Assembly (NCBI GenBank): GCA_905331295.1
Contig: CAJNYD010000075.1
Coordinates: forward strand, 1-47,799
Direction: 5' to 3'
Source of the DNA: Rotaria socialis
Lineage: Eukaryota
DNA length: 47,799 nucleotides
Shown: positions 1 through 44,710 of the stretch, piece after piece
How the letters are laid out: every line of letters begins with the position of its first letter
How positions within the stretch are numbered: the first letter of the stretch is position 1
Position numbers and translations under genes: made by a program
Notes under the pieces: generated by a model
The model's database searches: none
Told to the model about the DNA's origin: nothing
The model's input: only the letters and a program-made list of their open reading frames with translations

Positions 1-539
1 TTTTATATAATAATAATAATAATTTTTTCGTTTCAGCTGCTAATCCTTTTTTTCTCCAATTTAGTTGTACGTAAAATGTAAGTATATTTTTTTATATAAT
101 ATTATATATTGGTGATGGGTGCCCTACGTCCTATGTCCTACCGGGGGGAGTGCCAATATTACTTTGGTGCCCATAGCACGTACAGGCCGCTATATAGTTC
201 TTCCTGAGGATGTGATATACACGCTAGATCTATGTCTGTACGTGAAGAGGCTCGCCTCTCTATGGCACCACCAAGGTAGTGCTTGGTCGCGCGAGCAACT
301 ATTAACTGGTAAGCAAAAATTTTCATTTTCATTCCAATGCAATTCATTTATTCTTTTTTCGTTTTAGCTCATCTCGATTTCTTCAACAGCAACGTAATTT
401 CACTTATCTTATTTCAAAAAACAAAATAAAATTAATTGCTATTTTTATGTTTTAGTTTCATTCAACAATTCAATTCCATCCAAACGAAAAAAGTTACAAC
501 TGTGTATTTTTTTCATGTAGTTTTATTGTTCTTTTGTAC

Positions 540-1160
540 TTTTTAATTTTTAAAATAAATAATTTTCAAAATAACTCAAATTTTTCTTTTTATTTCAATA
601 ATAAATATTTTCAAAATAAAATAAATTTTATTTTGATTCAAATAATGAATATTTTCAAAATAAATCAAAATTTATTTTTCATTTAAATAAAAATAATGCA
701 AATTTTCCAAATGATTCAAATTTTATTTTTTGTTTAAATCTAAATAATGCAAATTTTCAAATAATTCAAATTTTCCAAATAATTCAAATTTTTTTTTTTG
801 TTTAAATCTTAAATATTTTCAAAATATATTCAAATTCTTTTTATTTATTTAAATAATTCAAATTTTCATTTCAGTAATAAATATTTTCAATTCACTAATA
901 AATTATTTTCGTCGCGTTTCAAGAAATATTTTTATTTTACTACTAAAAATAATTATTTTACCAAAATATTATTTTATTTTACTAAAAATATACCTTTATT
1001 TTACTAATCATTTTTTTTTCATTTTACTACTAAAATTTGTAAAAATAATTCAAAATTTTATTTTTGTTTAAAACTAAATATTTTCATTTCAGGAATAAAA
1101 TATTTTTGAAGTAACAAATTAATTTTCATGTCAAGAATAAATATTTTGTGGAAAAAAGCA
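540..1160. repeat. Very AT-rich degenerate minisatellite-like tract (unit resembling TTTTCAAAATAATTCAAA)
   Basis: Recurrent variants of 'tcaaataattcaaatttt' / 'ttcaaaataa...aaatttt' between ~560 and ~1060. Confidence 0.55.
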
Positions 1161-1285
1161 AATTCTTTTATTTAATTCATTTCTTTTCGTTGAAGGGAAA
1201 GGATGAAAGGAAAATTGTTTTTTTTGTTCATTGATTTCAAAGTATGGAAAAAGGAACGAACAAACAAAAAACAATTTCACAAGTC

Positions 1286-3658
1286 TTATTGGATAAAAAA
1301 TCGTTGAACACGTTCATTATCCCGATCAACGACATAGAGATTACCATGTTGATCGAAAGACAAACCAACGGGGTAGTCGAACTGATTTGCTCCTGCTCCT
1401 CGACCATTTCCACCCACAATTACAGTGCTTTCTTTCGCTCCTTGGGTCCAACGTATTACACGCTGATTCCCCTGGTCTGCTACATAGAGTCTACCCAACC
1501 TATCAACGACGATTCCGACAGGATACTGCAATTGTGTCAGAGCACTCCCTGCGCCTTGTCCTCCAGCGACCACAATACCTTCTTTTGCACCTTTCTTCCA
1601 TTTCATTACACGATGATTGTCGCTGTCTGATACGTAGACTGAATGATCTCGATCGACAAAGAGAAATGTCGGTCCGTTGAGTTGATTGAGTTCAGCACCT
1701 TGTCCACTACCGCCAGCCACGAGAGTGCCAATGTTATCACCCAATTTATATCGTCTTACTTCATGTTTTCCATAGACAGAGACGTAGAGATATCTCTGCT
1801 CATCCATTGCTAATCCAAAACAACCGATGGTATCGATGAGTATTTCACCTTGTGTTGTACCACTACTACGAGACCATCGTACAACTCGGTGATTCCCTGC
1901 ATCACAAATAATGAGACTATCCGTCTCTTTGTCAATTAATACATCAGTTGAAACACTCAATTGATTCAATCCATTTCCTTGGAATCCACCAGCAGCAACA
2001 ACTTGTCCATTCGTTGTATCATCGTTCTTCCATTGCACAATACGACAATTACCGTAGTCAGCAATAACCACTGTTTGGTCATCATCAACAAAGAGACCAT
2101 GAGGGTAGTTGAGTTGATTAGTGCCACCCCATCGCCCGTTGCCTCCAGCAATAGTCCCTCCGTTCTGTGACCATTTAGCATTAGCAGGAATATTAACTAG
2201 AAGAGAAAACATAAGAATAAAAGGAGATCTCTCCCTCTATCGCGCTGAAGTGTGGGCGTGATTCTTCTGCTAATCTATACCCACACCCAATCATGAAGAT
2301 AATTAATCGATCAATCGAAATCGACCCTTAAGAATAGGTTTCTCAGTGGTGAATTGCATTATGGCTATACAAAAACTATTTAGTACCTATAAATTGAAGA
2401 TTATTCGTGCGATATACGGATTCTTGCTTCGCATCGCATTTCGTGTACGAGTGAAACTCGAATACCATCTAGTTTTAGCTCTTAATTTACGGAACACCAA
2501 CACCATTTTTTAGGAGAAAACAACCTGATCGGTAGACGAACACTTTGACTAATTCTGAAATTCAATCACAGGCTATTATAGCTTTCAGAATCATACCCAA
2601 TTTCATTAAGTAAGCTATGAAATTTCTTCATTTGCTTTAAAGAGAAAATAGTAGACCGCAATTTTTCCAGCTATAACTGATTCTGCTCATCTCATACCAG
2701 TACACTTTTCTTACAGGCGACGTCCGTGCTTATATGCAAAGAAAAAAGTAGTTAAGGAGCGAAAGACAATCTGATAATTCTTAGGAGAAACTTGCATTAT
2801 GAGAGTAAAAGGAGAATTAATTTCATAGATGAATTGATGAAGAACGCAATACAACACAACATTTCGCACAACACAAGAATGCAACAGCACAATATTTCTG
2901 CTTTTACTAGACGGATACCGTACCTGTGCGTATATCTCCCGATGCCGATCCTGTATCTGTGCGTATCTCTTCCGATGCCGATACCGTATCTGTGGGTATA
3001 TCTTCCGATGCCGATCGCATATCTGTGCAGACAACGTTGTCGGCGCTACCAGTGTTAGTATAACCAGCATTACAGGTGCATACCATTGCAAATGTAGTTG
3101 GGTCTTCTGAACAAAGAGCATTTGGATCATATCCGCCATTGTTGTCGTCATCGTAGTAGCCTAAAAGAGAGTAGTGGTTGTGAGGGTGTTCGTATCAGTA
3201 CCTGTGCGAATGTCGATGTGGACATGGCTAGTATCGTTCTTTGCTAGTCGACACGGATGATAACTAAATTTCGGAGAGAGTCGGAATTACGTGTATTTGC
3301 CTAGAGGTCCTGTTCGTCCGAATTCCTGAATTTTCAAAAATTTGATGGAATGTGTTCTGTGCATGAGACAGGTTTCGAAATGTTCAATATCACGCCAAAG
3401 GACGTATTCTCGCTAGATTGAAAGTGATATTGTTTACCAGGAAATTTATTGTCGTTGCATTAAGATCAAAGTACCAAGGAAAACCCATGCTACTGTAGGT
3501 ATAGGTTGGACAAGTGTCGTTCGTAAATCTGCAACTTAATGTTATTGATGTGATTCGGCATGAGGCAATAGGGTGGAATAGCTAAGATTGAAATTATGGT
3601 AGATTATTTCACTTGCAAAAGTTGGCAACATCATAGATGCAAGCAACAATATCAGCAT
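1286..3658 (-). CDS. Secreted protein: signal peptide, Cys-containing N-terminal region, degenerate EGF-like domain, 11-aa repeats and NHL-repeat beta-propeller. Exons 3658-3617, 3581-3438, 3412-3291, 3263-3202, 3160-2924, 2196-1286
   Basis: The last exon is a clear NHL propeller (QLNYPHGLFVD, LYVADQGNQRV, YPVGLSFDQHGNLYVVD) behind acceptor tctcttctag. Exon 3160-2924 encodes NNGGYDPNALCSEDPTTFAMVCTCNAGYTNTGSADNVVCT and joins it in phase 1. Upstream exons join in frame by manual splicing to start MLILLLASMMLPTF-LFHPIASC. The NHL exon is high confidence; the 5' exons are moderate. Confidence 0.75.
2246..2288 (+). repeat. Telomere-like inverted-arm cassette (copy A), in the last intron of the NHL gene
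   Basis: tgaagtgtgggcgtg-attcttctgctaatcta-tacccacaccc; near-identical in reverse complement to the cassette at 7158-7206. Confidence 0.8.
2914..3028 (-). repeat. 33-bp tandem repeat, about 3.5 copies, coding (D-x-x-SAS-x-D/E-I-R/P-T)
   Basis: Units start at 2914, 2947, 2980 and 3013 (gat(a/c)c.gta(c/t)ctgtg.gtat.tct.ccgatgcc). Confidence 0.9.
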
Positions 3659-5733
3659 GCGCTTGGTTCTTTTCTCAAGCATACAGAAATGAATTTCGTT
3701 GAAAAATTCATCAGAAAAAAGAAAGTGAAAGCATTTTTGGGATTGCATGAACAAACGTGATTGTTGAACTTTATGTTATCAACTCGGGTTGTCTTAGATG
3801 ACATGAAAGTGTCGCAAAACTATAACGAAAGTAAGAGAACTGAGCGACAGTTCTTATTTTGTTTAGGAAACAAGTTGAATCATTCAGATCAACCAATCTG
3901 CTAGAAGTGTAGCTATCACAACATATATTTTCATTATACAGCAGAATATCAAAGGTCTATAAGATTTAATCTATAAACTTACTTTGTGCAAATCCACCGT
4001 GAAATGCTTGTAACAAGAATACCAGCAATGGTAACCATACATAAAGCAAACAACCATATAATGCCATTTTGCGAACCAACAGCTTCGATTTGTATGAGTT
4101 GGAAAATCTTTTGAAAATGAAAAAAAAACGAGGATTTATAGTACTCGATAAATCTGGCGCAGCGAAAGGGAGCACATATTGAAGAAACAATCGAGCGTGA
4201 TCGCGTAACAGCTTGTGTCCATTAAGTTGCATGATTAGGGGCCAGGCAGATTTCACACATGTGTGTTTGATGAATAGTTAATGATTTGAAAAATCAACGT
4301 CGCATTTTAAATTAATCTAGAAATAGATTTAATAGCATCCCACGTTGTTGTCAAGTACTTTTTTCTGGGTACAATCAAATTTCCAGGATTTTCGTTATCG
4401 TGTCTTCAAGGTCTCCACCTTCAGAAATACGTTTTTTTTTGTAAAACATCGTAAAAGCAAGTTCATAATCATAATAAAAGTCATCGAAAAATGTATCGTT
4501 TTAGATCTTAAAATTTTTGCTGCAACATCAATACATTCACATTATTCTTCTATCAAGATGTGCAACAAGATTTTAGACACCGGTTTGTAAAAGTTTGGTA
4601 ACACGTATCATAGACCTGCAGTTTGTTTTTTATGAGTTTTATTATACTAGTATTTCATACAAGTAATTATATGCGTAGCTTCTCAAAAGAGATACTTTTT
4701 AATTAAGCATGCCGCTATTTAAAATCCTATTGCATGTGAAAATCTTACAGCTGGTTAAAACTATTAATAGTTAATAAACCTATTATATACTTATGCAAAA
4801 TCATGCATATCGATTTTAAATTATCTTCGAAAAGAAATAATTTTTTGAATTAAACAAACAGTTTTTATGTTTTTCTTTCATATTTATTAAAAAAAATTGG
4901 CTATTAAAAATAGTACATCTATTTCTAACATTATAGCATTCTTCAGTTACTTCCTTTTATTCTTTCTAATTCTGGTCTCTAACTGTTCTTTTTTTCAATC
5001 CTGCTCAAACCATATATGAGAAGCAATTTAAGATTTCGTTTGAATAAATATTAAGGTATTCCTGTAGGTATTTAAAATTATATATCTTTTCAGAACTATC
5101 TGTCTATTTAAAAAAAAGAGGAAAAGAGTGAAATAATAAACACTATGTAAAACTTTTATTTAGAATCATATATATGTATATTAAAATTATTTCTCAGAAA
5201 AAAAGATTTGCTTCAATGATACAAACAGTTTATCTATTCGTTTATCTTTAAATCTGTGTATCTATTAAAATTTGTGTATAACTATTTAATTTTTGGAATA
5301 GCTTTTAAAAGATAAATATTGTTATTAAATAAAATACAGTTACTTCTTGCAAAATAAATTAAAATTTATTAAATATTCTATCGAAATATGATGCTTTTTT
5401 AATCTATTATGCAAAATAATTTAATATGAAATTAAAAAAGAAAAAATTCATTCGATGTTTACGATAAAACTTTTCAAGTCCTTATGGGTGTATATTTCTA
5501 TATAAATACATATATCTGATATACTATATACTTATTTTAAATTACAATATATTACACATTTTTTATCTAAAATGAACAACCATTCTTTTTCAAATAAAGA
5601 TATCAAACATACATCAATCGTAATGGCTAGTACAATGTATTAGAAAGTAAAAATTGTTTTGAATACTATCAAAAATCTAATCTTATATCATTCTTTTTTA
5701 ATATCAGAGTTCAACAATTTACCAATATATATA

Positions 5734-7157
5734 CAGTAAAACCTCTCTTATCTGAACACTGTCGGTACTTTCAAAAATCGTTCAGATTAACAGGGTGATT
5801 ACAAAGGACGGGGGTCTGTAGAAATATAGAGATTTTTCGAATTAAATGGCACTATTAGTTCACTTCTGATGAACTGTTGTAATTTATTTATATAAAAAAG
5901 AATTATTTCACAAGAAATCCATAAGATTAAACAGGTACATATTTCAAATAATCCAGAATAGATCTTTGTTTTGATAAAGTAGAATCGAGGAGTGCATCAG
6001 TTGATTTAGACTATAATTCAATAATGAACGAATGTAATTCTGGTTGTTGCATTGTCGAGAAAAAGCGCAGACGACGAACTAGGTCTTAACATTCAGATAA
6101 GGAAGGTGGATCTTCACTTGGAACATCGTCATTCAGTTGATCTTCATTACTATCCCCATCATCATTGATAATTCCGCTAATTACTAATAATTTATTATTC
6201 GAATCATTCCATTCGTTAAATGATGGAGCATTATCATCAATACTCTGAAACAGTGAAACGTAAAAAATGAAAAATATTTTTCAAAATTTCTCTCCCACAT
6301 CTCACCACATAATATCATAGCCAGACATTGGTTTTCCACTGATGGTTAAATGTCTCAATACTCGATCTAATTCTTCAATTGATTTATCTTCTGCAGAAAT
6401 AATTTCATCTGTTATTGAAATTTGTTGTGATGCATCGATTCCATCGATAACAGAAATCTTTTCAAAACCGGCTGATTTGAATGTGTTCCTTATTGTTGTT
6501 TCTGACACTGCTTCACATGCGCCTTAAATCCAATAGACAACATCTAAAGCAGTGATATTAATATCGTCGGCCGTTACAGCAACACCAACACTGGTGATTA
6601 TATGCTTGACTAGATGATGTCGGTAATAAACTTTGAATGCTCGAATAACTCCTTGATCCATCGGTTGAATCTTTGCTGTCGTGTTTGGTGGAAAGATTTT
6701 TAACTTGATATTTTCTAATTGTACATCTGGAGAATGAACTGGTGCATTGTCAAGGAAGAGTGGAATGTGTCTTTTTTGTTTCTGCATAATCAAATCAGAA
6801 TCTTGCAATCATTCAGTAAAAAGTTAACAAGTCATCCGAGAGCTACGATTACTGTACCATAAGACGGGCAACTTCTTCAAGTCAATATTTCTGAAACATC
6901 TAGGCCGGGCTGATTTAACTATAACATGAACAAAAAAAGAGGTACAATAAAATAAAAATTGATGAAGACTAACATACCAATGACAACTGGTTTCAACTTT
7001 TCATTTTCGGCCCAATTGGTGCACAACATCACGGTATAGCGTTCCTTTGATTTATCGCTATTTCACAATCATTTCTGTCTACAGTTAACGATCGATCAGG
7101 CATCATCTTGCAAAAAAGTCCAGTTTCATCGCAATTTAATATGTCGACAGGATCATA
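5734..7157 (-). mobile_element. pogo/Tigger-family DNA transposon, degenerate and 5'-truncated, with an intron-containing DDE_1 transposase
   Basis: TA followed by TIR CAGTAAAACCTCTC at 5734. Minus-strand fragments include YDPVDILNCDETGLF, KLKPVVI/KSARPRCF, LFLDNAPVH, FPPNTTAKIQPMDQGVIRAFKVYYR and TIRNTFKSAGF, with stops and frameshifts. GT-AG introns at 6977-6919 and 6305-6245. Homology ends abruptly at 7157. Confidence 0.9.
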
Positions 7158-7206
7158 GGGTGTGGGTGTGGGTATACATTAGCAAAAGAATCACACCCAC
7201 ACTCAA
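7158..7206 (-). repeat. Telomere-like inverted-arm cassette (copy B), at the pogo / NHL-fragment junction
   Basis: gggtgtgggtgtggg-tatacattagcaaaagaat-cacacccacactcaa. Confidence 0.85.
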
Positions 7207-7286
7207 CGCATTACACGATGATTAAACAAGTCTGCTACATAGAGTGTACCTAACGTATCGATGAAGAGTCCATTAGGATAACACAC
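7207..7286 (-). pseudogene. Isolated ~80-bp fragment of an NHL-repeat gene
   Basis: Minus strand reads CYPNGLFIDTLGTLYVADLFNHRVMR. It is homologous to, but different from, YPVGIVVDRLGRLYVADQGNQRVIR in the gene at ~1450-1530. Confidence 0.85.
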
Positions 7287-7287
7287 T

Positions 7288-7377
7288 TGGGTGTGGGTGT
7301 GGGGTGTGCTAGAAATGCAACTGGTTGTATCTCTCGTATGTATGAATTGAAAGAACGCCCACACCCACACCCTCAAG
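7288..7377 (-). repeat. Telomere-like inverted-arm cassette (copy C), at the NHL-fragment / RT-fragment junction
   Basis: tgggtgtgggtgtggggtgtg, then a ~46-nt spacer, then acgcccacacccacaccctcaag. Confidence 0.85.
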
Positions 7378-7819
7378 ATAGTAAGATTGCATCAATCTTG
7401 AGATTTCTTATGGCACCATTCTTCAAATAATTTGATGCGATCATTTCGTGGTATCATGGTGTACAGATTGGTAACGTCAAAAATGACGAATAACATCGAT
7501 ACCACTGATTTAAGTTGTGTTTCGTGCCACTTTCAGGTAGAAAGCCGACAAAAGCTCGTTTAGAAAGTTAGAAACACAGCACTGTAAATCGTTGATAGGA
7601 TATGATCGGTCGTAGTGGCACATGCGGTTGATAAGAAGAACAAAAAGACAGATGATAATATTCAATGAACCTTTTGATTCGAAACTTACTTTGTGTGCTA
7701 TGGAAATAAAGTATGAATGAAGTAGCTCACATTTTGTTCTATCAGGCATCATTAGTCTCCATTGTTCCAAAGTGATGGTTTTCCTGTCTTTCAGATGATT
7801 CAATAACGACATGACTGAA
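7378..7819 (-). mobile_element. Degenerate Penelope-like (Athena/Terminon-type) reverse transcriptase fragment with an intron remnant
   Basis: Minus strand reads MMPDRTKCELLHSYFISIAHK|gtaagt ... VPLRPIIS ... VSNFLNELL ... FDVTNLYTMIPR, matching PLE RT N-terminal motifs and the first catalytic-Asp motif. Contains stops and frameshifts. Confidence 0.8.
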
Positions 7820-7909
7820 CTTGAGGGTGTGGGCGTGGGTGTTTCTCTGCACTTTGCCCACACCCCACACCCCAAACCCACAGCCACAGTCACAGCCACA
7901 GTCACACCC
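7820..7909 (+). repeat. Telomere-like inverted-arm cassette (copy D), at the end of the RT fragment
   Basis: cttgagggtgtgggcgtgggtgt-ttctctgcactttg-cccacaccccacaccccaaacccacagccacagtcacagccacagtcacaccc. Confidence 0.85.
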
Positions 7910-9057
7910 GTCTCCTATTGTTTTCATTATGTTTTTCAAGGTTATGAGGAACTGGAAAAATATACAAAGGTGCCAATTCTAGAATAATAATAAAAAGTAA
8001 ACTGAATCATTCTTGGAAAGGTATCCATTACGTCAAAAATTGTCATAACAGGCATACGAGTCGATCTGCTTTTGGGTCATTTTCAATTTATAATTTTCTT
8101 CTTGGATTTGTTGTGCTTCTATTATGCAGCCTCATGACGAGTATTTTATTTTCAAATAAAAAAGACGAGAAGCATCGGGAAAATTAATTTTGCATTGATT
8201 TCATTTTATTATTTTTGACTCAAACACATTCACATAGTTTATTTTCTCGATTAAACAATGAAAATGAAATATAAAATCATACGTAAAAATACTAATGTGA
8301 ATAGGGTAGTCAAAAAGAAAAAAACTTTTCTATGAAATAAAGCAATGAAAAGAATTGTCTGTTTACTATTCATTATCGAGTGAAACAACAGTCATCTTTG
8401 AGAGAGTGTAAATTGTTTTTTATTATTGTGATCCAAAAGAATATCTTTGTAATTAAAATGTTATTCTCTGATCATCTGCTTTTAGAGAAGTGGATAAAGG
8501 AAACGCAGTGAAATAAACATGAATAAATGTTTCTACGTACAGTAGATGTATGAAACCAACTATCTTAGCCTTGTTCATTACTTCTCATGTTCTTTCAATA
8601 TAATGTTGTTCAATCAAGCAACACAGTGCATTTCAAAGCTATCATAATTTAACCAAAAACAAACAAACTTGCACTTTAAGTCAACAATATATGAGTTTGG
8701 CCTTGTCTGATCATGCCTAGTGTGATAAAAGGCGAGTGAGACAGAAGCAAATTTATAAGGTATCGGAGAAAAAGAATTAAATTTCTTCAACAACATTATA
8801 TTCATAAAAATTTCATTATACTACTGATATAAGAGATTCGATAGCCTTTACAAAGAATACAAGCGTACTTATATAGTTTTGCAACGATTGACAATGAAAA
8901 CGTTAATATATGCTCATGTTACCGTTACACCACGATCAGACAGAGTATTTCAGACATGGTTATATAATAAACAACTATCGAACATTCACCGTTTTTTTTT
9001 AAGTTACAGGTAAAACTCTTCAATAATACGCAAATTCATACAATCGTCGATTTATCA

Positions 9058-11114
9058 ATGATCAAGAAGCATTCAAATCGTGCTAAGCATTTATTGTCCA
9101 AAAATTCATTATTCTCATCCAATCATCAGCAACATGTCGTTTCTGAGCCCATTTCTTCAGTAATATCAACAGATATGGAATTGTCATCACAACATAATCA
9201 TCAGTAAGACAAAAAATTCTCAGAACAATTCCATGCATTATTGTAAGAAAAGGTTACTATATTATATGTCATTTGCTAAAAAGGAATTACTTAACTGGAT
9301 GTTGAAACATGTGATGCAATATTCGAAAATCTTTGATCCATGATAATAAGTTTAATTGGATGATTCTAAATATGTGTTCTCTTTACTGTAGGATATCAAA
9401 AAATAGATTATGGATTATTTCTCTTGTAATAATACTTGTGATAGCCGGTTTCATTGCTCTGGTCATTGGTATTTATGCGCTGATATATCCAATCGGAAGT
9501 ATGACAAGTAAAAAAATAGTTGCTTTTCTTCAAAGTTAAAAATTGATTCTATCATGAATGAAATAGCTTGATCTATATGTTTTTAATCTGAAAAAAATTG
9601 TGAAATAACTTTAAGTCATTTATATCTAGCAGCAACAACGAAGCACACGATAACAACAGCCACTACAATGGGCTCGACAACGACAACTACAGCTACTAGT
9701 AAGTTGTCAACTCGTGTTGATGTTCTGAATCCAGAGTAATTGGAGTTCATAAGGCTTTTACTTAAGTGTTTCAGTACTGCAATAGGACAGATTCAAGTGC
9801 TTTGAACAAAGGAGTCTATGCCATACTTAGTATTGTAAATTCATTTATATTTTCGAAGAAAATAATGAGTATAAATTTCATGGTAGAAGTTTGAAGGCTT
9901 TCCTCTTTACAGGCGTTAGTAACAAAAAAACTTTCGAACAGTAAAGGTCATAGAAGTTCTCAAAGCTTACATCGAAATCTGATTCTTTGCAAATAGATTT
10001 TCGATGCTTTAAATGGTCTATATTCTTATTTTGCTTTAAATAAAGGTTTACATTTCAGATAACAGTGATGATGAGATACGCACTTTGGTAAAATTAGACT
10101 TCTCTTAAAAGTTAATGCAGACGCTTTTAAATTTATCAAGATATGTATGGTGGACTTATTTACCAGTTAATTCACTGTTTTCAAATGATAATAATAACGC
10201 TATATATAAAGAAAACAACATATCCTATGTAGCGAAAACCAAAGATTGAAAGCATTGAGGCGTTGTACATGTGCACTGAGAGGAGACCTCTACTTACTCG
10301 CATTCACACTCTCACACTAACACCTATTGAAGTGGAACCTAAGCTAGAGAATCTTATTAATTGTATTTTAATGAACTATTATCGAAACTTCTCTCTAGCT
10401 ACAACAACTACGGCATTCGTCCCTCAGTCATGTACTTCTGGAAGTCCAACAATGTTACTGAGCTTATTGAATCCTAGTGCCTTTTCATATACAGAATATA
10501 GTTACTCCTATACACCAACAACAGCCCAAGTAACAATCATGATTCAATTTGAACAAGATCCGAGTTCTTTCTCTATTGATGATGTGTCCGTCGTCAACCC
10601 GTCTAGCCCACAACTCCTTAGCAATGGTGGTTTTGAAACCGGAAGTCTTGCACCCTGGCAACATGGCACTGTAGTTAGTGGTAACGTCGCAAGTGGATGT
10701 GGACACTCTGGATCATATTGTTATAACGATGCAATCGTTGGTCAAACAGATAACATTCATCAGACATTTTCAACAGTACCAGGAAACACACTAAATGTTT
10801 CATTCTATTTACAAAACAATTCCGGAGGATCAGTTATCATCGCACGCGCCTGCATTTATCCACCCAGGACGAGCTTTACGACGGTAAATCGCCGTATTTG
10901 GCCGTATTACATGGCTCCGTATTACGATCGTAAATCTCCGTGTCGTAATACGGTGAAATACGTAAAGCGCCGTATTTCGCCGCATACGGCACGGAGATTT
11001 ACGATCGTAATACGGAGCCATGTAATACGGCCAAATACGGCGATTTACCGTCGTATACGACCGTGTATGTTCGACCTGGGCATATTGAAACAATTTCCTT
11101 CTAATTTGACATGA
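9058..11114 (+). CDS. Type II membrane protein with Thr-rich stalk and C-terminal carbohydrate-binding-like (galactose-binding fold / CBM_4_9-like) domain; C-terminus altered by a MITE insertion
   Basis: Exon 1 starts at ATG 9058 (donor uncertain). A TM exon at ~9392-9507 reads LWIISLVIILVIAGFIALVIGIYALI, and a Thr-rich exon lies at ~9630-9698. The last exon starts at 10399 (SIDDVSVV...QLLSNGGFETGSLAPW...VSFYLQN). Splice phases are compatible. Confidence 0.7.
10863..11080. mobile_element. Palindromic MITE (CCC...GGG termini, apparent 2-bp CA target-site duplication; CMC/EnSpm-like by inference)
   Basis: Termini cccagg and cctggg; long near-perfect internal inverted repeat (tacgacggtaaatcgccgtatttggccgtattacatggctccgtattacgatcgtaaatctccgtg and its reverse complement); CA on both flanks. 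Confidence 0.9.
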
Positions 11115-11372
11115 ACAACTATGAGGAGTCCAAGGAACCGAGACATTGCACACAATTTTTGATTTTTGATTAGATATCATAATCTTCTAAATCATTTGTT
11201 TTGACAGCAGCGAAAATAAATACTTAACGAATATAAAGAGAGACTACCATTTTGACGAAATTTACTTTTGCAGAAAAACTGCAAAAATAAATTCCGTATA
11301 GTCTAACCTTATATTGAATTATAATGTCATTGTGTAGTTACATTATAGCACTATTACATAGTGACGATATAC

Positions 11373-11435
11373 AGGGTGCTGGTGTGGGTAACTGCTCTCT
11401 TAACATGCCCACACCCCACACACACACACACACCC
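11373..11435 (+). repeat. Telomere-like inverted-arm cassette (copy E)
   Basis: agggtgctggtgtgggt-aactgctctcttaacatg-cccacaccccacacacacacacacaccc. Confidence 0.7.
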
Positions 11436-12576
11436 AATGAAATATCATTAAAGCATTAGTTTGATCTTGAGTATGAAATTCAATTATTAGTGGATTCCAA
11501 ATTCCAAATATATTTTAAACAAATCGGTTTTGTCATGAAGTTGGGTTCAACATTAGTTATACTAAAGTTCAATAAACTCACCGATGAATCCAACTAAAGC
11601 CGAACGTCAAGTATTTATGACATTGGTACTAGTGAGAGCTAGACCTACAAACTGCAACTACAATTAAACATTAAACATTTATTCTCTAATTCTAATTTTT
11701 ATTTTATTTGTCTATCTTTTTCACACTCTATGATTTTAAAAACGTTGTTCTCTCTTTCGATTCTTATTCACTTATAAAAAATTGTTTAATATTGACTCCG
11801 AAAATTCTTTTTCGTAACATTTTGAATTATTTTTAATGTATAGTTCATCAGTATACTCATTTATCTGTAATTTTCTCTTTCGTCCTTTTACTATTATGCA
11901 GAGCCGTGAAGAGTGTTCTATCATTAAAATAAATAACACGAAACGCGTCGCCGAAATAAAATTCTGCATTTCTTTTAATTCAAGCACAATACAAAATTTA
12001 GTATATTTATTTTTGACTTTGATCGATTGCTGAAAAACAAGAGTTGGGAATAGCAGATTAATTTGGCTGCTTTGTTAAGAGATAGGTTAATCTGTTTTCT
12101 AATTGATAAAGTTGGCCTCTATCTTCCAGAACCACACTTTTCGCACGGTCAGTTTTATACAGGATGTTCAAGAGCAAAAGGAATCTAATGGTTTAAAAAT
12201 TCAAGTAAAAGATACCACTAGACAGGGGAAAACGGATAATGGGCAAACAGTAATGGATAATGTTGTTCATCGGGAGATTTTTTCGTGAATTCCATATGCC
12301 TAATGTTCTGAGTCTATAACTTTAGTATTTCCTTTTTTATTTAATAATTCAAATAGCAATCCAAAAGTTTTTATTAAACCAATTTTTTCTATAATATTAA
12401 AGTTCAGTTGTTCACATGGGCCTTTAATTTATAATTATAATTGATATAAAAATTTATCTGTGATCGTTGTGGCTGTTTCGACATAAAAGTGTTGGTTCGA
12501 ATTTTTTCATTTATTTTCGAAGTGATATTAAGCTTTCAGAGTTTCATTTATATTCGAAGTCGAATTAGGTAACTCA

Positions 12577-14094
12577 TCAATCCGATACCAGGCTATAAAT
12601 TTTTGTATTAGCACATTTAGGACATGCTTTACCACCACAATCTATGTCAGTTTCATCTTGATTCTTCACACCATCGCTGCAATTGGGTACTACAGAGCAG
12701 ATAAAGAACTACATAATATTTTATATGAAGAAAAATATACCTTGACAGGTTTTAGATTTGCACACTTCACTAACACAATCTGAGTCGGCTTTGCAGGTTT
12801 TTCCATTGGGACATTTTGAACATTTTTCACCACCACAATCTATATCAGTTTCATTACCATTCCTATAACCATCGGTACAAGTGGGAGCTAAAAAGAGAAA
12901 AAGTTAGGAAAAAATTCGATTCATAGGTAGACTAAAATTCTCATGGCATGTTCACCATTATGTATGAGTGTTCTGAAAAGTAATCCTGAAAGTCAACCTT
13001 TTCTCAAACTTATGTAGATGCGAAAAGAAAGATTGATATAGCGATTGTTAAGACGATTCAAGAAAACTTTTCTAGTGAACTTCATTTGAATTGTTTTTTT
13101 GCAAAAACGTGGAACTATTGTTTGAACGATTTATTTTTATTATTACATCGATTTCAATGGTTGAGTATTGTTCAAATCGACCTCCATATATTTAATTGCC
13201 AGCAACATTTTGAGATTTGGATATGGATATGCGAGTTGCATGTATGATGAAGGGCAATAGTCAATTCAAAATGCTTTCGTAAATTATCATCAAATCCCAA
13301 AGGATCCGTCCTACGAACTGTAATACATGGGACGAAGTTTAATCGAGACGTGCACTTGTATCCTTTCTCGAGTCGAATAGTCTGAATAAATGACTAAAAG
13401 CGTCACTTTTTAGTTTAAATCTAAACATTAGCACTTTTTGAGTATCATATGTCTTAAAATCGATTTCCGAATTCAATATTAATTGTACTCCATCTAAAGA
13501 TGATAGACAAAATCCGTTCGAAATTGATTTTGGTAGAAAATTGACACACGAGGGTAGAAATGAACAAAGAGAAGGACAGATAGCTTCGCTAGAAGAATTA
13601 AAAATAGTTTGTTTTATATGTCTAAATAAATTATGTCGCTGTATTATCGGTTGAGTCGGGAAAGTTATGAATAATTAAAATGTGGTAGGTGAAGATGATG
13701 ATTTTTGCTTGAACATCATCCTCACACCCATAACTATATTCACCCTCAACTTTGTAAAAGTTCTGCTCTTATGCAGTTAGCATACCTTTACATCTTTTCT
13801 TGTCGCAATTACCGCTCGAACACTGATCGTTATATCTGCAAGGGGCTCCATCATTACCGCTCTTCATATCCTTGCTGTGAATCACTGAAAATCGACCTAG
13901 CTGAAGATCATCATCCAGCTAGAAGAACACTACAGAAGTAACAAGAGAATATGTATATAGATGAAGGTAAAGACACAAACCATTTGGGCCACATTGTCGC
14001 TTTTGAAATCTTCCTGTGATGACATAGCCACATTCAAACAAAATACAAGAACACCAATGGTTAGCCACATCCACCTATCAACAAAGATTTTCAT
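12577..14094 (-). CDS. Small secreted Cys-rich repeat protein (CxDGxxNxxETDIDCGG repeats). Exons 14094-13981, 13918-13786, 12887-12741, 12689-12577; last repeat truncated
   Basis: Manual splicing gives MKIFVDRWMWLTIGVLVFCLNVAMS...GAPCRYNDQCSSGNCDKKRCK-APTCTDGYRNGNETDIDCGGEKCSKCPNGKTCKADSDCVSEVCKSKTCQ-VPNCSDGVKNQDETDIDCGGKACPKCANTKIYSLVSD*. All introns are GT-AG with compatible phases. Missed by the ORF track. Confidence 0.85.
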
Positions 14095-15208
14095 GAACTC
14101 TCTTTCATATCACTGATCTAATTCGGTAATTGAAGGTCACAATGATAAACTGGTATACTCTTGCAGCTACTAATGGCTACATGAAATATTCCACCAAAGT
14201 ATACAGCAGTGTTGAAGAAAACAAATAATCATTTATGATTGTTTTCATTCTCAATTTTTACTTAAAATATACATTTCATATGATGGTTTCAGCTTTTAAT
14301 GACTAAAAACTTCTATCAAAATATTTATTCCAACAATAAAGATTCTATTTTTTCCGATGACCAGTGTAGTAGTACAGGTAAATTTTTCTTATAGTATATG
14401 TTGCGATAAATCCTTCAATCTTGAGGATTGGTTGTGGGTAACAGTGAGAGATTACTATAAACTCTCGCTCACTAGTCAACATTCATCACATTCTTACATT
14501 CACGGTAGTAACCTTTGATAAAATTGTTACCTAAAAAAAGTATTTTTCAGCCTTATCGCAGCCTAGAATCTGCTGATGAAGTATTGTGAGATCGATATCG
14601 ACACTTAGTCATGACATATACACCTGAAATTTCCCAACTATTCTTATGTTAATGGCCGCCAACTCTAACTGAGAATAGGATCTCTGATATTCGTTTTGTT
14701 CATACAAATCTCATCCTAAAGAGCCGTTCCTATTTTTTCTCGTGTATCACTAATTTCAAACGATTACGGCCCTTTTTCTTAACTCAATTCGTAGAATGAA
14801 AAGAAAAATTTAGCTTTTAAACGAAGCTAGATAAAAACAGTAGACTTACCTTTTTACGTTTCCATGACGCCTTTGACGTATTTGCATTATAATACCCGCA
14901 AAATTCGAATTAATCGAAAAATCACACTGAATATTTCCTGGAAACAGATATATATGTGAATAGATATGAATATATACATGTAGCGATTGATGTAACAGAA
15001 AAACTATTGAGTTTAGATATGACAAATAATATCCGTGACATCAATTAATCTATAGTGCATCATTCTTTTACAATATCGCGATTTTTTGTGTCTCTCTACT
15101 TCGTCACGACAATTAAAAGTAGAGACATATGAAACTAGATATTAATTGTACAGAGAGGAACGCAAATCCTGATGGCTTGATTTTTTTCTCTACTCCTCTA
15201 GTAATCAT

Positions 15209-15410
15209 TAGGATGCGCCAGCTTCATCTCAAAGTTCAGCTCTTCGGAACGAATGAACTGTTCGAACGTTCTTTTTCATAGAAACTGAACTTTTTCAACA
15301 GCTCTTTTTCAAGAACTGGTTGGCGAGATAACCCTTGAAAATCATAGAGACCATCCTATCCCGTCAACAGTTCCTTCGTTCAGAGCAAAAAATGAACTGT
15401 TACATCCCTA
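15209..15410. mobile_element. Decayed hAT-like MITE
   Basis: Right end gaactgttacatcccta and decayed left end taggatg; flanking 8-mers gtaatcat / atagtcat match 6 of 8; internal gaac/gttc repeats. Confidence 0.55.
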
Positions 15411-16670
15411 ATAGTCATTTAATCGCGTGGGAAGTACAGTTCATAGTAAGAATATAATCGAAATATCTATCTATAGTGCTACTAAAAATATATTCCTTAG
15501 AGGAGAAAAAAATCTAAAGGAGTGAAAAATAATGTTGATCATACATACTGTTAAAACCTGATTAAAAGCGCATAGCGCGCGTTACTTTTATCTAACAGCC
15601 ACAGATGGCAATGTAAACCATACTAATTGGAAATCAGCACAACAAAAAGCGAATCCCTTCGCCAATTCGATACTAATTCCAATCGTTTGAAGGCCTTTCA
15701 CACTAATTTAAAACAATAATAACTATCAGTAATGCAAAAAGCCTACCAATAAAATGCATGCGACAGGTGGAAAAAAAGAAATATGATAGTGCTATGGTTC
15801 GATTTTATTTCAATTTTTCTAATATTAATTTAAAAAATAGAGTATATGAGCGCCATTAGAATGATTACTTCGTTTTCTTGATCATTTTAAAACGACAATA
15901 GAGACAACGAAAAAAGACTACCTTTTGTGTTTGAAAATTGAACTTATTGGAATATCACGTTGCTACTGCTAATTATCTTATTAATGCAGTTGTTTTTACG
16001 ACGAATCTGAATATGTGTTTTTTTTTAAACTTCCAATGAAACGAAATATTTTTTTAATTGAAAAATCATCAAACTCGAGGGTAAGGGTATGGGTATAATA
16101 ATTGAAGACAAGTGATTTGTATCGTAGAAACCATCTTATTTATTTAAACATGTCTTAACTGTATTGATAGAATGAGTAGATTTCATGTTTGCATGTGTCA
16201 TATTTGGTGAGAAGAATTTGTTTTTCATTTCAGAACCGCAAACTCTACGATATGAGACGTGACTTTTCACCTTGGCCGTCGGAGCAAAGAATATGTGAGG
16301 ACATCAAAGACGTTGTCTAGATTCCTAATCAAAAAATAGAAAGAGATTCATATAATTGATGTTCCAAACATTCTTTATCTGTCACTGAATTCTTACAATG
16401 TAGCTCCATTATTGGGATCCCGGAAAATATTTCTGTTATAAGTTTATGTTTTCCTGAAGATCTTTATTATTAATTCAATAAATTTCTTTCAAAAGCAGCT
16501 CTGTTAAATGTCAATTGTTCAGCTTTAGAAGATTTTATGGTACACTATTACATTGCAATACAATAGTCAATAACATCACTTCGCTGCAATAGTAGGCACT
16601 GCTATGGTGAAGTATCGTGATTCTCTCTCATTGTCATGCGTAGCATGATTTCTGCATTTGCAACATAGAA

Positions 16671-16730
16671 TTGAGGGTGTGGGCGTGTACCCTCACCTTT
16701 CAGTCCAATAGACACACCCACACCCTCGAG
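16671..16730. repeat. Telomere-like inverted-arm cassette (copy F), with the conserved TYGAG end on both arms
   Basis: ttgagggtgtgggcgtgt-accctcacctttcagtccaataga-cacacccacaccctcgag. Confidence 0.85.
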
Positions 16731-19358
16731 GTTAAGGTTAGAATTAAGGGTTAAGGATAGAAATAAGAGGCTAAATATGAAATCAACGGCTGGATATAGC
16801 ATTAGTGGCGAGTACTAGACTAATTGAGTGTGGCGGACTACATTTTACCACTCTAGAACCACTTTTGGAAGAAAAAGGAAAAGGTTCCAGCTAGAACCAG
16901 ATTTTGCTTGAGCTTTAAATGGTTCTGAAAATGGTACTCAAATCTAGAACCTTAAAAGATTCAGTATGGCACCTTTTTTCTGAGTATTCATAACGGAAAA
17001 CTAATTTGGCAATGTCGCATACCTGCGTGAGTCGGTTACTGATGTGTAGCTGTGGGAAACGTTTAACAGGTTCCAGAAGTATCGGAAACCTATAAAGGGT
17101 TTCATATAGTGACAAACCCGGAAACCTCTTATTCGTTTCTCAGAACACGGATTTTATTTCGAATGTATCCGATTTTTTAATAAACAAAAGACAAACAATG
17201 GTATCGGCCTTTAATAAAACTCACCTTTCAACGAATGATTTCATTAGCACTTCGTTTCGAATTGTTTTAAATCATTAGATTTCATGAAATACCTTGATTT
17301 TCTTTAACAATATTAATGAGTTCTAGTTGAAAGCAGCGAATACTATATATGAGTAGTCTTATTAACAAAACGCTGCATAATTTAAATGGTTAAATGGTTC
17401 ATTTTTTTGAACAAATATTTTTTTCTATTTCATGAGCATTACGATAGCCCACGTAAATTATAAAACATTCATTTATACGAAAAGTTTTAATTTTATCTAT
17501 GATAAGCCGTCAAAACGTGTGCGTTTTTTATTCAAAAATAAAACCAACATTGATATTGAAGAAAAAACCACAGAAAAATAGATGGCAATTTGAAAACTAA
17601 TTGATGATATAAAACTATTCTTTTTTTAATCTTTTGTTGCTGCCTTGTTTTGTTTGTTTTCGCTCTAAAATGAAACTAGAATAATTTCACTTTGCATATA
17701 TGATTCTTACTTTTAATAAATTCTTCTACATGCTCATATGTAATTGAGTTTAACAAAGTCATAAAATCTATATTGTCTAAAACTACAACAAATATTTTCG
17801 ATCACAGATTTGTTAAGAAGGAAGCAAAATTTTACTACCTTGTTTGTTGACGCAATCTTTCATGGCGTCTCGAATTTTACTCATTTGATCGTGAATTTTT
17901 GATTTCCTGAATAATCAAAATGAAACTATTTATGTTAAAGTGGAGACACAGATATAATTATTATATCATTTAAGAGCCATCAAAGAGTCATCAATCTTTC
18001 CATGTTGCTCGACAAACTGAATATTAGTAAGTACATCTAAAGAAGAAACCTGCATACTGATATATTAAAAAACTCTTACAGGTACCTTCCCAGTTTTTCA
18101 TCTCGTAAAAAATAGTTGCACGTTTTGAATAGTATTCAATCAGATGAGATGTATTAGTAGATGAATTAATTAGGTTTTTCAAAAACTAGAATTAATGTCC
18201 TAATAAGTCAAAGAGAAAAAATGTAAAATATACCTTTAATTTCTCGACATTTGGATAGTCGACATTTTCAAACACATAGTTGTATTGAGATAACATTGCG
18301 AAAGATAAATAGTTAATAACTAAGAATCGATGATATCAACTTAAATTTTTGCTGTCAGTTGTTTGTTGTGTTCGTCTTATATATATATTGAATAGAATCG
18401 AACTAAATAAAGAGAACAAAGGACAAGGAATCGAAGAATCAGTCTATAATGTGATTAATCAACCAATAACGACGAGTAGTTAGATGAAAATGAGAATAAC
18501 GAATCCTATTAATGGCATCTGATTTCATCCTTAGTATATCAAAAAAATCCACGGTACAAAATCGAAGTGAAGGCTGAAGGTATTGTTTCGAATTTTTTTT
18601 TCTTCGAAAAGATTCTGAAATAATTAGCTTTTTAAACATTCCATAGATAAAATTGAACATTGTCGAATTCTACGTTAATTATTGTGGAGATCACACATAT
18701 TTTTGAAAAAGCTGTTAGCGCAATCCCTGTGGGATCAGAATGTAAAACACGATGTAGTTGATTTTTCATAAATACGAAGATAATTGAGGTTGATACAGCC
18801 CATGTCCCAAAAATCGACTCACTTTTGACGATTAATCGGGATTTTTCAAAAATAAATATACTAGAATATTCTATGTAAATAAAAGTTTATTTTTTATTAT
18901 TTTTAACTACGATAGAATCAACTTGAATTGTTTTTATGCGATATTTTATAAATTAAATACATCACTATAAGAGAAACTATTTCAAGTTCTAAAAAAACTG
19001 TTGACTTCAGTTTTCAAAATAAAGCTCTCGTTGCATTTTGAACTATTTCAAGCAATTCTCCGTAAAATTCTGCATCTTTGAATGCATGTTTTCGAGTTTT
19101 GCAAGAAACATTTGGGAGACAGGTTTGTTCCGAATTAAATTCTACATCGGATCGGATCGGATGTGTATGTTTGTGTTTTTATGTGATTACTAGCGACACA
19201 TTTGTAAGAATCTATTGATTGGTGCAATCTGACTATTCCACAATTGATCAATATAATCTATCTTCATTTAACTTCATCACAACAACACGATCTTATTTGA
19301 ACTACTATTCCTATTTTTTTTTAGTATTTTGATTATTTGTAGCAAAACCAAAACAACA

Positions 19359-22300
19359 ATGGTTAAGACGAAAACAAAACCTAAAAAACGTCGTACATTT
19401 GCTACTGATAAACATAATTCAAAAACTCGTGTCGATACAGTAAATAAAGTCAATCCATTTGATCTTCATGTTAATCGTTTAAAACATGATGTACTCGGTA
19501 AAAAACGTAGCTATGAAAGAGGTGGTCAACCACTTAAATCTCGATCACGAGGAATAGAAAAAGTATTTAATCAATTTTTTTGTGTTGTTTTTAATATAAT
19601 TTTATTTCATAGAGAAAACGTACACTATTAAAAGAGTTAAATTCAGTATTTAAACGAAATACATTTATTGATCATCGTATTGGTGAAAATGATCCAACAT
19701 TAACAAATGATGAAAAACTAATGCAACGTTTAATTGCAGAGCGAACCGTTAGTCTAATTTGTCAAATTCTATTTTTAATTAATTAATATCTTTTTTTTTT
19801 CGAACAGAAAATGCGTCCTGGTAAAGAAAGTCGTTATAATTTAAATGACGAAGAAGATTTAACACATTATGGTCAATCACTTTCGAAATCCGATGAACTC
19901 AATCAAAAGCCAATTATTGATGATTATGATGATGATGATGATTTACATAAAGGTCGTTTGAATTCTGAACATTTTTTTGGTGGTTTTAAAGCTTCAATTG
20001 AACAACGTAAACCACAATCAAAACAAGAATGGATTGAAAGTATGATTAAAAGTACAAAATTAGATAAATATGAACGTCAACGTGAAAATGAAAAAATCTT
20101 CGATATGACACAAACGCTTGATGAACAATGGAAAGCATTAAGTACAATTATGGGTATTAAAGATAAAAAACCGAAAGAAACAAGAGAAACATCGGATGAT
20201 TATGATAAACTTGTGGCTTCATTAAGATTTGAAGCAAAAACAACCGTTCGTTATTAAATTACTCATTTTAAAAAAGAGATCTTAACTTTTTTGTTGTCTT
20301 TTTACTCGCAAGGGTGCACCAGTTAAAACTATTGAAGAAACAGAAAAAGAAACAGCAGAAAAATTAAAAACATTACAAGTAAATAAAATAACATAATCAA
20401 ATTTTCTATTTAATTGGTGAATCACAATAGGTTGAAGAAAGACAACGTATGGAACAACCAACATTGAAATCAATTTTAGCAAAAAATAAACCACAAAAGC
20501 ATATTTTTGTTGAAGAATTAGATGAAAGGTTGGAAAGATTTTTTTTATTTCTAAAAAAAATAAAGTTTGTCAAATAGTTATTATATCATGGATGGATCGA
20601 AAAAACGGGTGACATTTGATGATGATGAGGCTATGAACAATGAGCCTGTACCACCGATCGAGTCAGATGAAGTAGTACCACATGAAAATGATTCGATGGC
20701 AATGGATAATGGAGAAGGCGAAGAAGAAGAAGAAGAAGAAGAAATTGATCAAACAGTATGCTCTATCAAACTTTGAAATATTGAATTTCATCGTTTATTT
20801 TAGACAAATGGCGATTTAATTGCAGAATTCGAAGAAAGTATGTTATTTGAATTTTTCTCACTCTGAAAATAATCCAGTTTATATGCTTAACACTACAGTA
20901 GACTTTCCAAATCTTGAGCGACTAAGACAGATCTAAGAGGTTGAAATAGATTCTAGTAAAATTTTCTTAGTTTCACTCAAACTTGCCCATAACCATAAAA
21001 TGAAGCCGAACAGCTAGTTATCTTCGTTTGCCCTTCTAGAAATCTATACATTTGTACACATTGTATTTTTCATTCTAGTTCCATCAGATATTGAAAAACT
21101 TCAAACTCGTCTATCTGAAGATAAAAATGCATTGAGCACTATCTGGAAACGAATCAACGATAAACGATTACCGCCTATACCAAGATTAGTTTTAAGTGTA
21201 AGTTTGTGTTTTTTCTTTATGTGCTAAAATAAATGTCATTCATCATCTAGAACTATTTCGATGTTCTGCTGGATTATTATGAATCAGTTACATCAAATCA
21301 AACGTTGTTGAATCACATTGGTAAAAATCTTCTTCACCTAGTACAATTAGCTAATAATGAACAAACAAAAGGCAATATACAAAGTCGCTTAAGGCAATAT
21401 CATGATAATTTAAGTGAACAAATTGAAAATGGTAAATTTTGCGAAATAGATTCATCATTCGTACGTTATGTCACGGCTTCTGTCTTTTTCTCTCTAATGA
21501 AAATTTCCTATTATTTATTAGATTGTTTTTTTTAAATTAATCGCTCATCTCTATCCAACATCCGATTTTTGTCATCCAATAACAACACCAGCCATAACAT
21601 CACTTGTTCAAGCGATAAATCATGTATGAATTCTATTCGAAAGAATTAGGAAAATTTATTTTCTTCGTTTTTTGTTTTTTTAAAGAGTTCTCTAAAATCT
21701 CTTCATTCATGTCGACAAGCATTATTTTTAATTGGCTTAGTAAAACAAGTAAGACAAGATTCATAAGTAGAATTTACTTCTATAACAAATTTTTTCTTCA
21801 GTGGGTATCAAAAAGTCATCGCTACGTTCCAGAAGTCACTGTTTTATTAACAAAATTAATTCAACTTGCATGTCCAATTGAAAAATCTCAATATGTTATA
21901 ACCAGTTCATCGAAACAGATCAGCAATAATCAATTACTCGTTTTGAATAAGAATAGTGACTTGTAAGTTTCTAAAAATCTACGACTACTTGACCTTGTCT
22001 CATACGCCATGTGGTGGTACCCTTAACTTTCGAATTGATAGCTAAACACATTTCATCTTTTATTTTATTGAGATGCATATAAATGTCACCCGAAAAATGA
22101 TCTTAATTATTTCGATTTTGATCAAAACATTATGAAAATTTCTTTATAAACTTTCGATCTCATTACAATTATGAGTTCAGTTTATTTCCTAGATAATCAG
22201 CATTGATTTTATAGGAGCATTTTCATCATCATTAGAACACTTCAATGAAAAACTACATATTTATATTTTATATTATTTTTTAGATCAAATTCAAATGAAC

Positions 22301-27115: not shown

Positions 27116-27579
27116 TAGACATACATTTCCATCAAAATAAATTCCATCTAGAAAAACAAAAAGCAATTTTTCCAACGCATAATTTCAAAGAGTTCTTCGT
27201 TCTTTTCCGTAAACCATTTCTTACTGCTACCCCTTTATTATTCGTGTAATTCATACGACAATTTATCTTGTATCTATTCCGAATACTATCTATTTTTTTC
27301 TCTTTGTTTGATTTGTGTTTTTATACTATCGTAATCCTTTTCTCTGGAAATAAGTTATGCATCTATTTTAGAAAACTCGATTGTGTTTTTGGTTTTATTT
27401 GAAAAAAAAGCAGAAGAATAGCTACTATCTAGAGAAAAAAATAATAACTATTTTTATCTTCAAGGGCAAACAAAACATCAGAAAAAAATTTATAATTTAA
27501 AATCTCATATTCGAAATGTTTACGTGTAGAGATAGATCTAAGTTGCTGTCAATAGCTACAAAATTTATTAGTGTATATA

Positions 27580-44610: not shown

Positions 44611-44710
44611 NNNNNNNNNNNNNNNNNNNNNNNNNNNNNNNNNNNNNNNNNNNNNNNNNNNNNNNNNNNNNNNNNNNNNNNNNNNNNNNNNNNNNNNNNN
44701 NNNNNNNNNN
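44611..44710. other. Assembly gap (100 N)
   Basis: Run of N. Confidence 1.

Follow-up and report, generated by a model that had tools for sequence, protein, structure and literature searches.

Opposed telomere-type repeats at the joins between three unrelated coding fragments in the bdelloid rotifer Rotaria socialis

Bdelloid rotifers survive shattering of their DNA, have mosaic, gene-poor regions and carry much foreign DNA, and how the pieces of such genomes become joined is not settled. This question is raised by a locus of Rotaria socialis on contig CAJNYD010000075.1 (assembly GCA_905331295.1, positions 1 to 47,799), the whole of which was analyzed and is referred to as the window. A first-pass annotation, made from the letters of the window, had described three unrelated coding fragments that abut on the minus strand, namely parts of a pogo transposase, an NHL-repeat gene and a reverse transcriptase (RT), with a short repeat cassette at every junction. 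This description holds with small corrections to the edges of the NHL and RT pieces, and the three junction cassettes are denoted B, C and D (Table 1). The locus provides breakpoints at the nucleotide level, three successive joins, and opposed telomere repeats with an apparently templated center. It is a well-resolved example of native fragments that have been shuffled, with no evidence of foreign DNA.

The arms of the cassettes consist of the bdelloid telomere repeat in its (TGTGGG)n-type form (TGTGGG is reported as the bdelloid telomere repeat in PMC7943196 and PMC13564844). When at most 1 mismatch was allowed, GGGTGTGGG matched 31 times in the window compared to 0.79 expected matches, a number that was reached by 0 of 100 shuffles. 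All 8 cassettes of the window (A to H) follow the order (TGTGGG)n, spacer, (CCCACA)n, and the reverse order was found in none of them. Due to this G-then-C polarity, each fragment between cassettes resembles a small capped chromosome, with G-rich repeats pointing outward from both of its 3' ends, and the G strand runs 5' to 3' away from the flank at 6 of 6 fragment ends. Neither the identity of the arms with the telomere repeat nor their fixed polarity had been noticed in the first-pass annotation; with these two features, the cassette is likely a scar of ends that were capped and joined, and not itself the agent by which fragments are stitched together.

The arms range in length from 9 to 53 nucleotides (nt), and the two arms of one cassette differ both in length and in their repeat variants, which rules out that one arm was copied from the other by folding back on itself. 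Introns with GT...AG-like ends were considered and dismissed, since the cassettes join unrelated fragments and are located outside intact exons. As cassettes G and H are located in the right, gene-rich half, this type of scar is not confined to transposon-rich DNA; the stretch around cassette G (26180-31500) gave no Pfam match. In addition to the 8 cassettes, solitary or very degenerate half-arms with a TYGAG edge and without a clear partner arm were observed at 13721-13749 (CACCCTCAAC...), 14425-14440 (CAATCTTGAGGATTGGTTGTGGG) and 16079-16097 (CTCGAGGGTAAGGGTATGGG). These may be older, decayed cassettes, and the first two of them bracket a 700-bp segment in C...G order.

If the cassettes mark joins, the sequences on their two sides should not belong together, and this can be read from related copies of the joined fragments. 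Public contigs of the same organism from several sequencing runs (among them X1, X2, X6 and X12) were compared with positions 1-20000 of the window, and all statements on these contigs refer to the matches listed. At the NHL fragment, paralogous contigs (30 in X1 and 3 in X12) match the window from 7204 on and continue upstream with NHL sequence where the window has cassette B: on the minus strand, NHL sequence ending in ...GCGTTG is followed by AGTGTGGGTGT in the window and by GACTCAAGG in the paralogues. The alignments of NHL paralogues stop at 7279-7289 at the other end of this fragment, where the divergence of the paralogous contigs falls at about 7283-7289. Furthermore, a contig with a pogo paralogue (X12 record 13) matches 6978-7163 and then continues with its own sequence, and the homology of the RT fragment ends at 7815 and 7395 at the protein level. 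The cassette edges are thus approached to the nucleotide for NHL, within 6 nt or less for pogo, and within 4-17 nt at the protein level for RT. At the right edge of cassette A (2289), 17-27 contigs per run that share 2289-2335 with the window diverge exactly at this position. Run X12, which we guess to be RNA, yielded paralogue contigs only. Since homology stops at the cassette edges, and in no testable case continues across a cassette, the cassettes mark joins and not insertions, as had been proposed at the outset.

All three fragments are read on the minus strand. In the pogo remnant, Pfam DDE_1 (PF03184) was matched by the frames 6524-6808 (E 2.6e-13) and 6919-7062 (E 6.6e-05). The remnant is truncated at its 5' end at 7157, its frame is split into several, and its N-terminal DNA-binding part is absent; N-terminal DNA-binding domains, which we take to be usual for pogo/Tigger transposases, would be located where cassette B and the NHL piece are now found. 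The frame 7029-7178, with an upstream ...NCDETG... stretch, enters cassette B at 7158. For the NHL piece, the frame 7203-7391 (minus strand) scored just below the 20-bit cut-off against Pfam NHL (19.6 bits, E 8.9e-4), and 7204-7259 shares 82% identity with positions 1449-1504, which lie in the intact NHL gene (1286-2236, minus strand).

The RT fragment was identified through more distant similarity. The Pfam scan of its three frames gave no match, and a word-based protein search with the 134-amino-acid frame scored 0 of 464 candidates. An exhaustive HMMER search with the RT piece yielded 4 short hits (best E 3.5e-05), one of which led to 11 long Rotaria proteins. By tblastn, a Rotaria protein of 1204 amino acids aligned with residues 744-838 to 7815-7471 (E 4.9e-18) and with residues 847-881 to 7499-7395 (E 1.6e-4). 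The piece contains the motifs ...PLRPI... and FDVTNLYTMIP, and on the basis of such motifs we take it to be putatively Penelope-like. As the copy in the window has in-frame stops and frame changes and covers an internal part of the protein, the piece is both internal and decayed. Its homologues bear the name 'reverse transcriptase domain-containing', with RVT_1, HTH_animal and DUF8422 in precomputed or atlas annotation; in our own Pfam scans, RVT_1 was detected in 1 of 5 homologues, below the cut-off, and GIY-YIG in 0 of 5.

All three families are native to the rotifer genome, and this bears on the suggestion of the first-pass annotation that the cassettes indicate a route for sequence shuffling and, speculatively, for the capture of foreign DNA. 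The shuffling of native fragments is borne out, while foreign capture stays speculation.

Table 1. Cassettes and joined coding fragments in the window, listed by position.
Feature	Position	Strand	Description	Basis
Cassette A	2250-2288		Sister of B, same spacer family; directly upstream of NHL frame 1286-2236(-)	
pogo/Tigger-type DDE transposase remnant	6302-7157	-		Pfam DDE_1, frame list
Cassette B	7158-7203		G arm GGGTGTGGGTGTGGG 7158-7172, 19-nt spacer 7173-7191, C arm CACACCCACACT 7192-7203	
NHL-repeat gene fragment	7204-7289	-	86 bp, approximately one blade (...YPNGLFIDTLGTLYVADLFNHRVMR), cut at both ends	Pfam, paralogue comparison
Cassette C	7290-7379		G arm 7290-7309, 46-nt spacer 7310-7355, C arm CGCCCACACCCACACCC 7356-7372, outer TCAAGAT 7373-7379	
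Reverse-transcriptase fragment	~7380-7819	-	Internal, decayed, truncated on both sides	HMMER, tblastn
Cassette D	7820-7909		Outer CTTGA 7820-7824, G arm GGGTGTGGGCGTGGGTGT 7825-7842, 14-nt spacer 7843-7856, long degenerate C arm 7857-7909	
Cassette E	~11375-11437		G-then-C polarity; GGGCAT at spacer end of one arm	
Cassette F	16671-16729		TTGAG and CTCGA at outer edges	
Cassette G	27947-28005		2 kb downstream of SRF-type frame 25548-25979	
Cassette H	43535-43603		~650 bp downstream of last Nup84/107 match	

The spacers and the repeats next to them give indications of how the cassettes were made. Each cassette of the locus had been described as carrying a different spacer, and the spacers (14-46 nt) are indeed mostly unrelated to each other. 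However, cassette B shares its spacer with cassette A (89.6% identity over 48 bp, 2242-2289 around A, in opposite orientation), and one spacer edge of C together with the adjoining arm resembles H (90.9% identity over 33 bp). At the spacer side, one arm per cassette closes with a variant repeat. The variant GTGGGCRT was found 6 times in the window compared to 0.46 expected occurrences, with a single copy in each of the cassettes A, C, D, E, F and H, and is the last repeat before the spacer in 5 of these 6, with a further GGGTGT repeat following it in D. Cassette G carries GGGCGT at the spacer-adjacent position, and cassette B has GGGTGT in its copy of the spacer of A. Past the variant repeat, the spacers share only a loose T-rich start. 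At the opposite side, the outer arm edge takes the form (C)AATCTTGAG / TYGAG; many arms start with TYGAG, and TYGAGGGTG was found 7 times in the window compared to 0.13 expected. No source of the spacers was identified elsewhere in the window, where the longest exact match (13 nt) is at chance level. With their GGGCRT ends and TYGAG starts, the structured arms look templated.

The same architecture recurs in independent metagenome contigs. A scan of metagenome contigs for TTGAG plus repeats revealed at least 119 loci, of which 50 were rotifer-like by a G+C content below 0.43 and the rest were set aside. Among the matches listed, 42 distinct rotifer-like flanks were compared: the three bases before TTGAG are ATC in 15 of them, with C at -1 in 20, T at -2 in 26 and A at -3 in 26, the outer motif is extended to (A)ATCTTGAG, and the DNA farther upstream is unrelated. 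Several rotifer-like loci have in common an 11-nt spacer of the type TCTTCTCTTTA, which is bounded by TGAGGG-type repeats. A regular-expression survey of the window and the 50 rotifer-like loci (among the matches listed) for arms at most 90 nt apart identified 14 arm pairs in GC, 0 in CG, 11 in GG and 4 in CC order; the expression missed the window cassettes A, B and E, and the GG and CC pairs may be interrupted arrays. In one metagenome locus (L189), three units in tandem, near the match to the pattern, all open with ACTTGAGGGTGTGGG, as though the addition of repeats had resumed three times at one template position. In viral contigs, scans with the cassette pattern (75 loci) and with ATCTTGAGGGTGTGGG (16 loci) returned unrelated hits, none of which had rotifer-type repeat arrays; all but a few of them were GC-rich, prokaryote- or phage-like hairpins or chance matches.

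We consider it probable that the cassettes arose from broken ends that were each extended from a C-rich RNA, either telomerase RNA or the tail of an Athena-type RNA, and then joined head to head. A break would expose a 3' end, often ending in TTG or TG, on which telomerase or an endonuclease-free Penelope-like RT of the Athena type could prime in order to copy the C-rich RNA. The product would comprise an optional outer TYGAG followed by TGTGGG repeats, and an extension from a 3' end in TTG would start with AGGGTGTGGG. At one of the two ends, copying would pass the repeat template, giving rise to the variant last repeat (GGGCRT) and to 14-46 nt of non-telomeric spacer, and this uncapped tail would be joined, through end joining or annealing, to the second end, which would carry no more than a short seed of repeats. 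For the clustering of three cassettes in 770 bp, a single shattering event is one possible source; a simpler one is that breaks recurred next to a scar already present, and interstitial telomere repeats are reported to promote rearrangement (PMC11626172). The outcome of such a process would be the shuffling of native gene fragments.

Several observations weigh against this explanation. We infer both the enzyme and the origin of the spacer by read-through, and an 86-bp fragment with a cap at either side requires that two breaks occurred in close proximity. The hammerhead ribozyme, a mark of Athena 3' ends, was not found: Rfam gave 0 matches at the gathering score in the whole window, and hammerheads were absent among 14 weak matches (E <= 10) in 7050-8000 as well as among 32 matches (E <= 0.1) in 20 metagenome loci, noting that a 5'-truncated hammerhead ribozyme would escape the Rfam models. 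The matches at loose thresholds were chance microRNA-like hairpins only, which reflect the shape of the cassettes. The diversity of spacers within one genome is better explained by several templates (Athena families) or by decay than by a single telomerase RNA. Moreover, the strict T[TC]GA edge is rarer in arms outside the search pattern (2 of 14 in the metagenome loci, 3 of 9 in the window); of these 14 metagenome arms, in which one locus is represented twice, 8 have 'GA' immediately in front of GGG. The termini of mobile elements would equally be expected to show a recurrent outer motif. The flank comparison covers paralogous copies, no contig without a cassette is among those listed, and none of the contigs listed bridges cassette B, so that the join at B comes from the assembly of the window only. 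Finally, R. socialis is described as non-desiccating and obligately aquatic (PMC7943196), and breaks caused by desiccation are, therefore, not an obvious source of the scars.

If broken ends were indeed extended and joined in this way, the scars would document, across the genome, where breaks were repaired by means of a reverse transcriptase and would provide a handle for finding the telomerase RNA, and their presence in a non-desiccating Rotaria would mean that the path is not tied to drying. We also put forward, tentatively and as a possibility that we do not favor, that bdelloids possess a dedicated repair system in which telomerase or an Athena-type RT routinely seals breaks. In such a system, both broken ends would be primed, with copying starting in a CAAUCUUGAG-complementary stretch just 3' of the template, and at one end copying would pass the template boundary into a hairpin, so that a C-rich tail would form and anneal to the G-rich tail of the other end. 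The template of the telomerase RNA, its boundary and its flanks would then be readable from genomic scars, and each bdelloid cassette would represent a dated break. Bridging of this kind would stitch unrelated DNA together, in principle including foreign DNA, even in a species that never dries.

One alternative explanation is that multi-copy pogo, NHL and telomere-like repeats were misjoined during assembly, which we regard as very improbable. It draws on the high copy number of pogo and NHL, with a summed contig depth of 4416 in bin 6671-7337 compared to ~45-60 nearby (X1), on the lack, among those listed, of a contig across cassette B, and on the scaffold nature of the window, which follows from a run of 100 N at 44610-44709. 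However, contigs from two runs and two studies reproduce 7230-10757 (X2 record 19) and 7230-8690 (X6 record 26) with 0 differences, and X1 record 2 covers 7626-10099, including cassette D, without difference; the RT piece and cassettes C and D are thereby reproduced. Arms of 9-20 nt are too short to misguide an assembler, and a like architecture is present in independent metagenome contigs. An assembly error is unlikely for C and D and conceivable only for B. It is likewise barely credible that 7158-7909 is one composite repeat unit that was copied as a whole. The summed contig depth of 7338-8004 (93, 101 and 14 in X1, X2 and X6) is somewhat above that of the next two bins (45-60, 49-74 and 6-9, respectively), but this excess is small, summed contig depth is not equal to copy number, and telomere-like arms alone would add contigs. 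We see no sign of a high-copy composite unit at 7338-8004. Furthermore, contigs from 7230 on enter low-depth flanking DNA, with no alternatives among those listed, and 7140-7909 has no whole-block match within the window, where it matches only the NHL piece (1449-1504), cassette A by way of B, and cassette H by way of the edge of C.

The cassettes could alternatively be copies of a small mobile fold-back element similar to miniature inverted-repeat transposable elements, or of a recombination signal, whose terminal inverted repeats are telomere-like by coincidence (CTTGAGGGTGTGGG...) and which would insert into unrelated sequences or recombine between them. This would account for their hairpin shape. 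As single strands, cassettes B, C, A and H fold well below shuffled sequences (z -3.1 to -5.9; B, -11.6 kcal/mol, z -4.3; C, -20.2 kcal/mol, z -4.9), whereas the fold of cassette D is no better than that of shuffles (z -1.0). The recurrent outer TYGAG, with its extension to (A)ATCTTGAG in the metagenome loci, resembles conserved element termini, the spacer shared by A and B is found at unrelated places, and the 11-nt spacer recurs across metagenome loci. We nevertheless consider such an element unlikely, as none of the 8 cassettes of the window is flanked by a visible target-site duplication, as the arms are unequal within a cassette and the spacers mostly unrelated, and as no open reading frame or longer parent element with such ends was seen. 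The flanks are never continuous where this could be tested (pogo/NHL, NHL/RT and the edge of A), and the paralogues continue differently. Even less probable, in our estimation, is that the locus was formerly a chromosome end, built from endonuclease-free Penelope-like elements (Athena/Terminon) chained head to tail and capped by telomerase, with the cassettes as the normal junctions between units. The RT fragment is of Penelope-like type by the motifs named above, and no endonuclease domain was detected in the scanned homologues, although this null result is weak, since the same Pfam scans also failed to detect the RT domain in 4 of these 5 homologues. Athena regions are described with 5'-truncated copies capped by short telomere stretches and with host genes between the units (PMC6431247, PMC3846280), and the GGGCRT/TGAGGG variants beside the spacer recall the 3' tails of Athena/Terminon elements, in which a hammerhead ribozyme is followed by (ACACCC)n or (TCACCC)n (PMC6431247). 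Yet such a chain predicts one repeat polarity on both sides of a unit, and all 8 window cassettes are opposed; the RT piece is internal (residues 744-881 of 1204) and has lost the 3' end that terminal attachment would retain; the hammerhead motif was found neither in the window nor in 7050-8000; and of the remaining two fragments, one comes from a DNA transposon and one from a host gene.

The locus is part of an AT-rich window (G+C ~31%), whose left 17 kb contain transposon remnants, the NHL-repeat gene and repeats. Ordinary animal genes are found from ~19 kb on, encoding Nop14, Headcase, an SRF-type transcription factor (frame 25548-25979), a PTB/PID protein and Nup84/107. The NHL gene at 1286-2236 (minus strand) is an intact open frame of six blades with cassette A directly upstream of it, and its product is 99% identical to a protein labeled Rotaria socialis. 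The family of this protein is very large, with 5415 of 7997 scored candidates reaching E <= 1e-10, and the summed contig depth over 1335-2668 is hundreds-fold above that of single-copy bins. Beside cassette A, the 47-bp segment 2289-2335 recurs in many contigs with differing neighbors. Just left of cassette E, a 184-bp stretch (10877-11055) is 91% identical to its own reverse complement, and the bin 10673-11339 has a summed contig depth of 18,414 in X1 compared to ~55 nearby; this palindrome is a candidate high-copy fold-back repeat. Cassette F is adjoined on its right by units resembling GGTTAAGG / GGTTAGAATT, repeated in a row (16729-16830) at a high contig depth, and the number of units varies between contigs (joints 16764 to 16729 and 16764 to 16812). 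Other tandem repeats comprise a 33-bp, coding-like unit at 2914-3028 within the open frame 2711-3160 (minus strand) and AT-rich units of ~50 bp near the left end (532-1106), which were seen as self-matches.

In the literature searched, which did not extend to the primary Athena/Terminon papers, no description was found of opposed-repeat cassettes with spacers as a usual seam of bdelloid genomes. The closest described case is the rare head-to-head form of vertebrate interstitial telomere sequences that adjoin a piece of telomerase RNA component (TERC-ITS; Sola et al. 2021, PMC8537989). As in the cassettes, telomere-type repeats face each other at breaks and adjoin a non-telomeric piece, and 3 of 41 TERC-ITS loci have head-to-head repeats, which were attributed to the action of telomerase at either side of the break, with read-through into the telomerase RNA. 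Among the vertebrate loci, head-to-head repeats are the exception; there, the flanking piece has been demonstrated to derive from telomerase RNA, and empty orthologous loci have been shown. Here, in contrast, opposed arms are the norm, as all 8 cassettes of a single 48-kb window have them, and these cassettes connect unrelated fragments instead of the two sides of one break.

Closer relatives in terms of organism are the neotelomeres and interstitial (TGTGGG)n stretches of bdelloids, in which the animal's own repeat was likewise added to broken sequence in a setting rich in transposons and multigene families (PMC13564844, PMC2861651, PMC3846280). Deletion breakpoints of Adineta vaga are reported to carry telomere repeats together with Athena fragments (PMC13564844), and bdelloid subtelomeres to have short telomere stretches that lie between genes and cap truncated elements (PMC3846280). 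In these accounts, single stretches cap truncated elements or breakpoints, whereas the cassettes are paired, opposed stretches with a spacer between unrelated fragments. Athena/Terminon elements share with the explanation proposed here the priming on exposed DNA 3' ends, the C-rich reverse complement of telomere repeats, including TCACCC, at the 3' end of the RNA, and host genes between units (PMC6431247, PMC8557442); their head-to-tail polarity, the hammerhead beside the repeats and the intact 3' end, as described in these sources, were not found at this locus. Inverted telomere repeats at rearranged junctions are also known from fusions of neotelomeres and telomere-spanning arm fusions in human cancer (PMC11293586), which are somatic and have long arrays, while those in R. 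socialis are in the germ line and consist of few repeats with a spacer. Set beside these systems, the locus is most likely a variant of the telomere-repeat scars that are left at repaired breaks.

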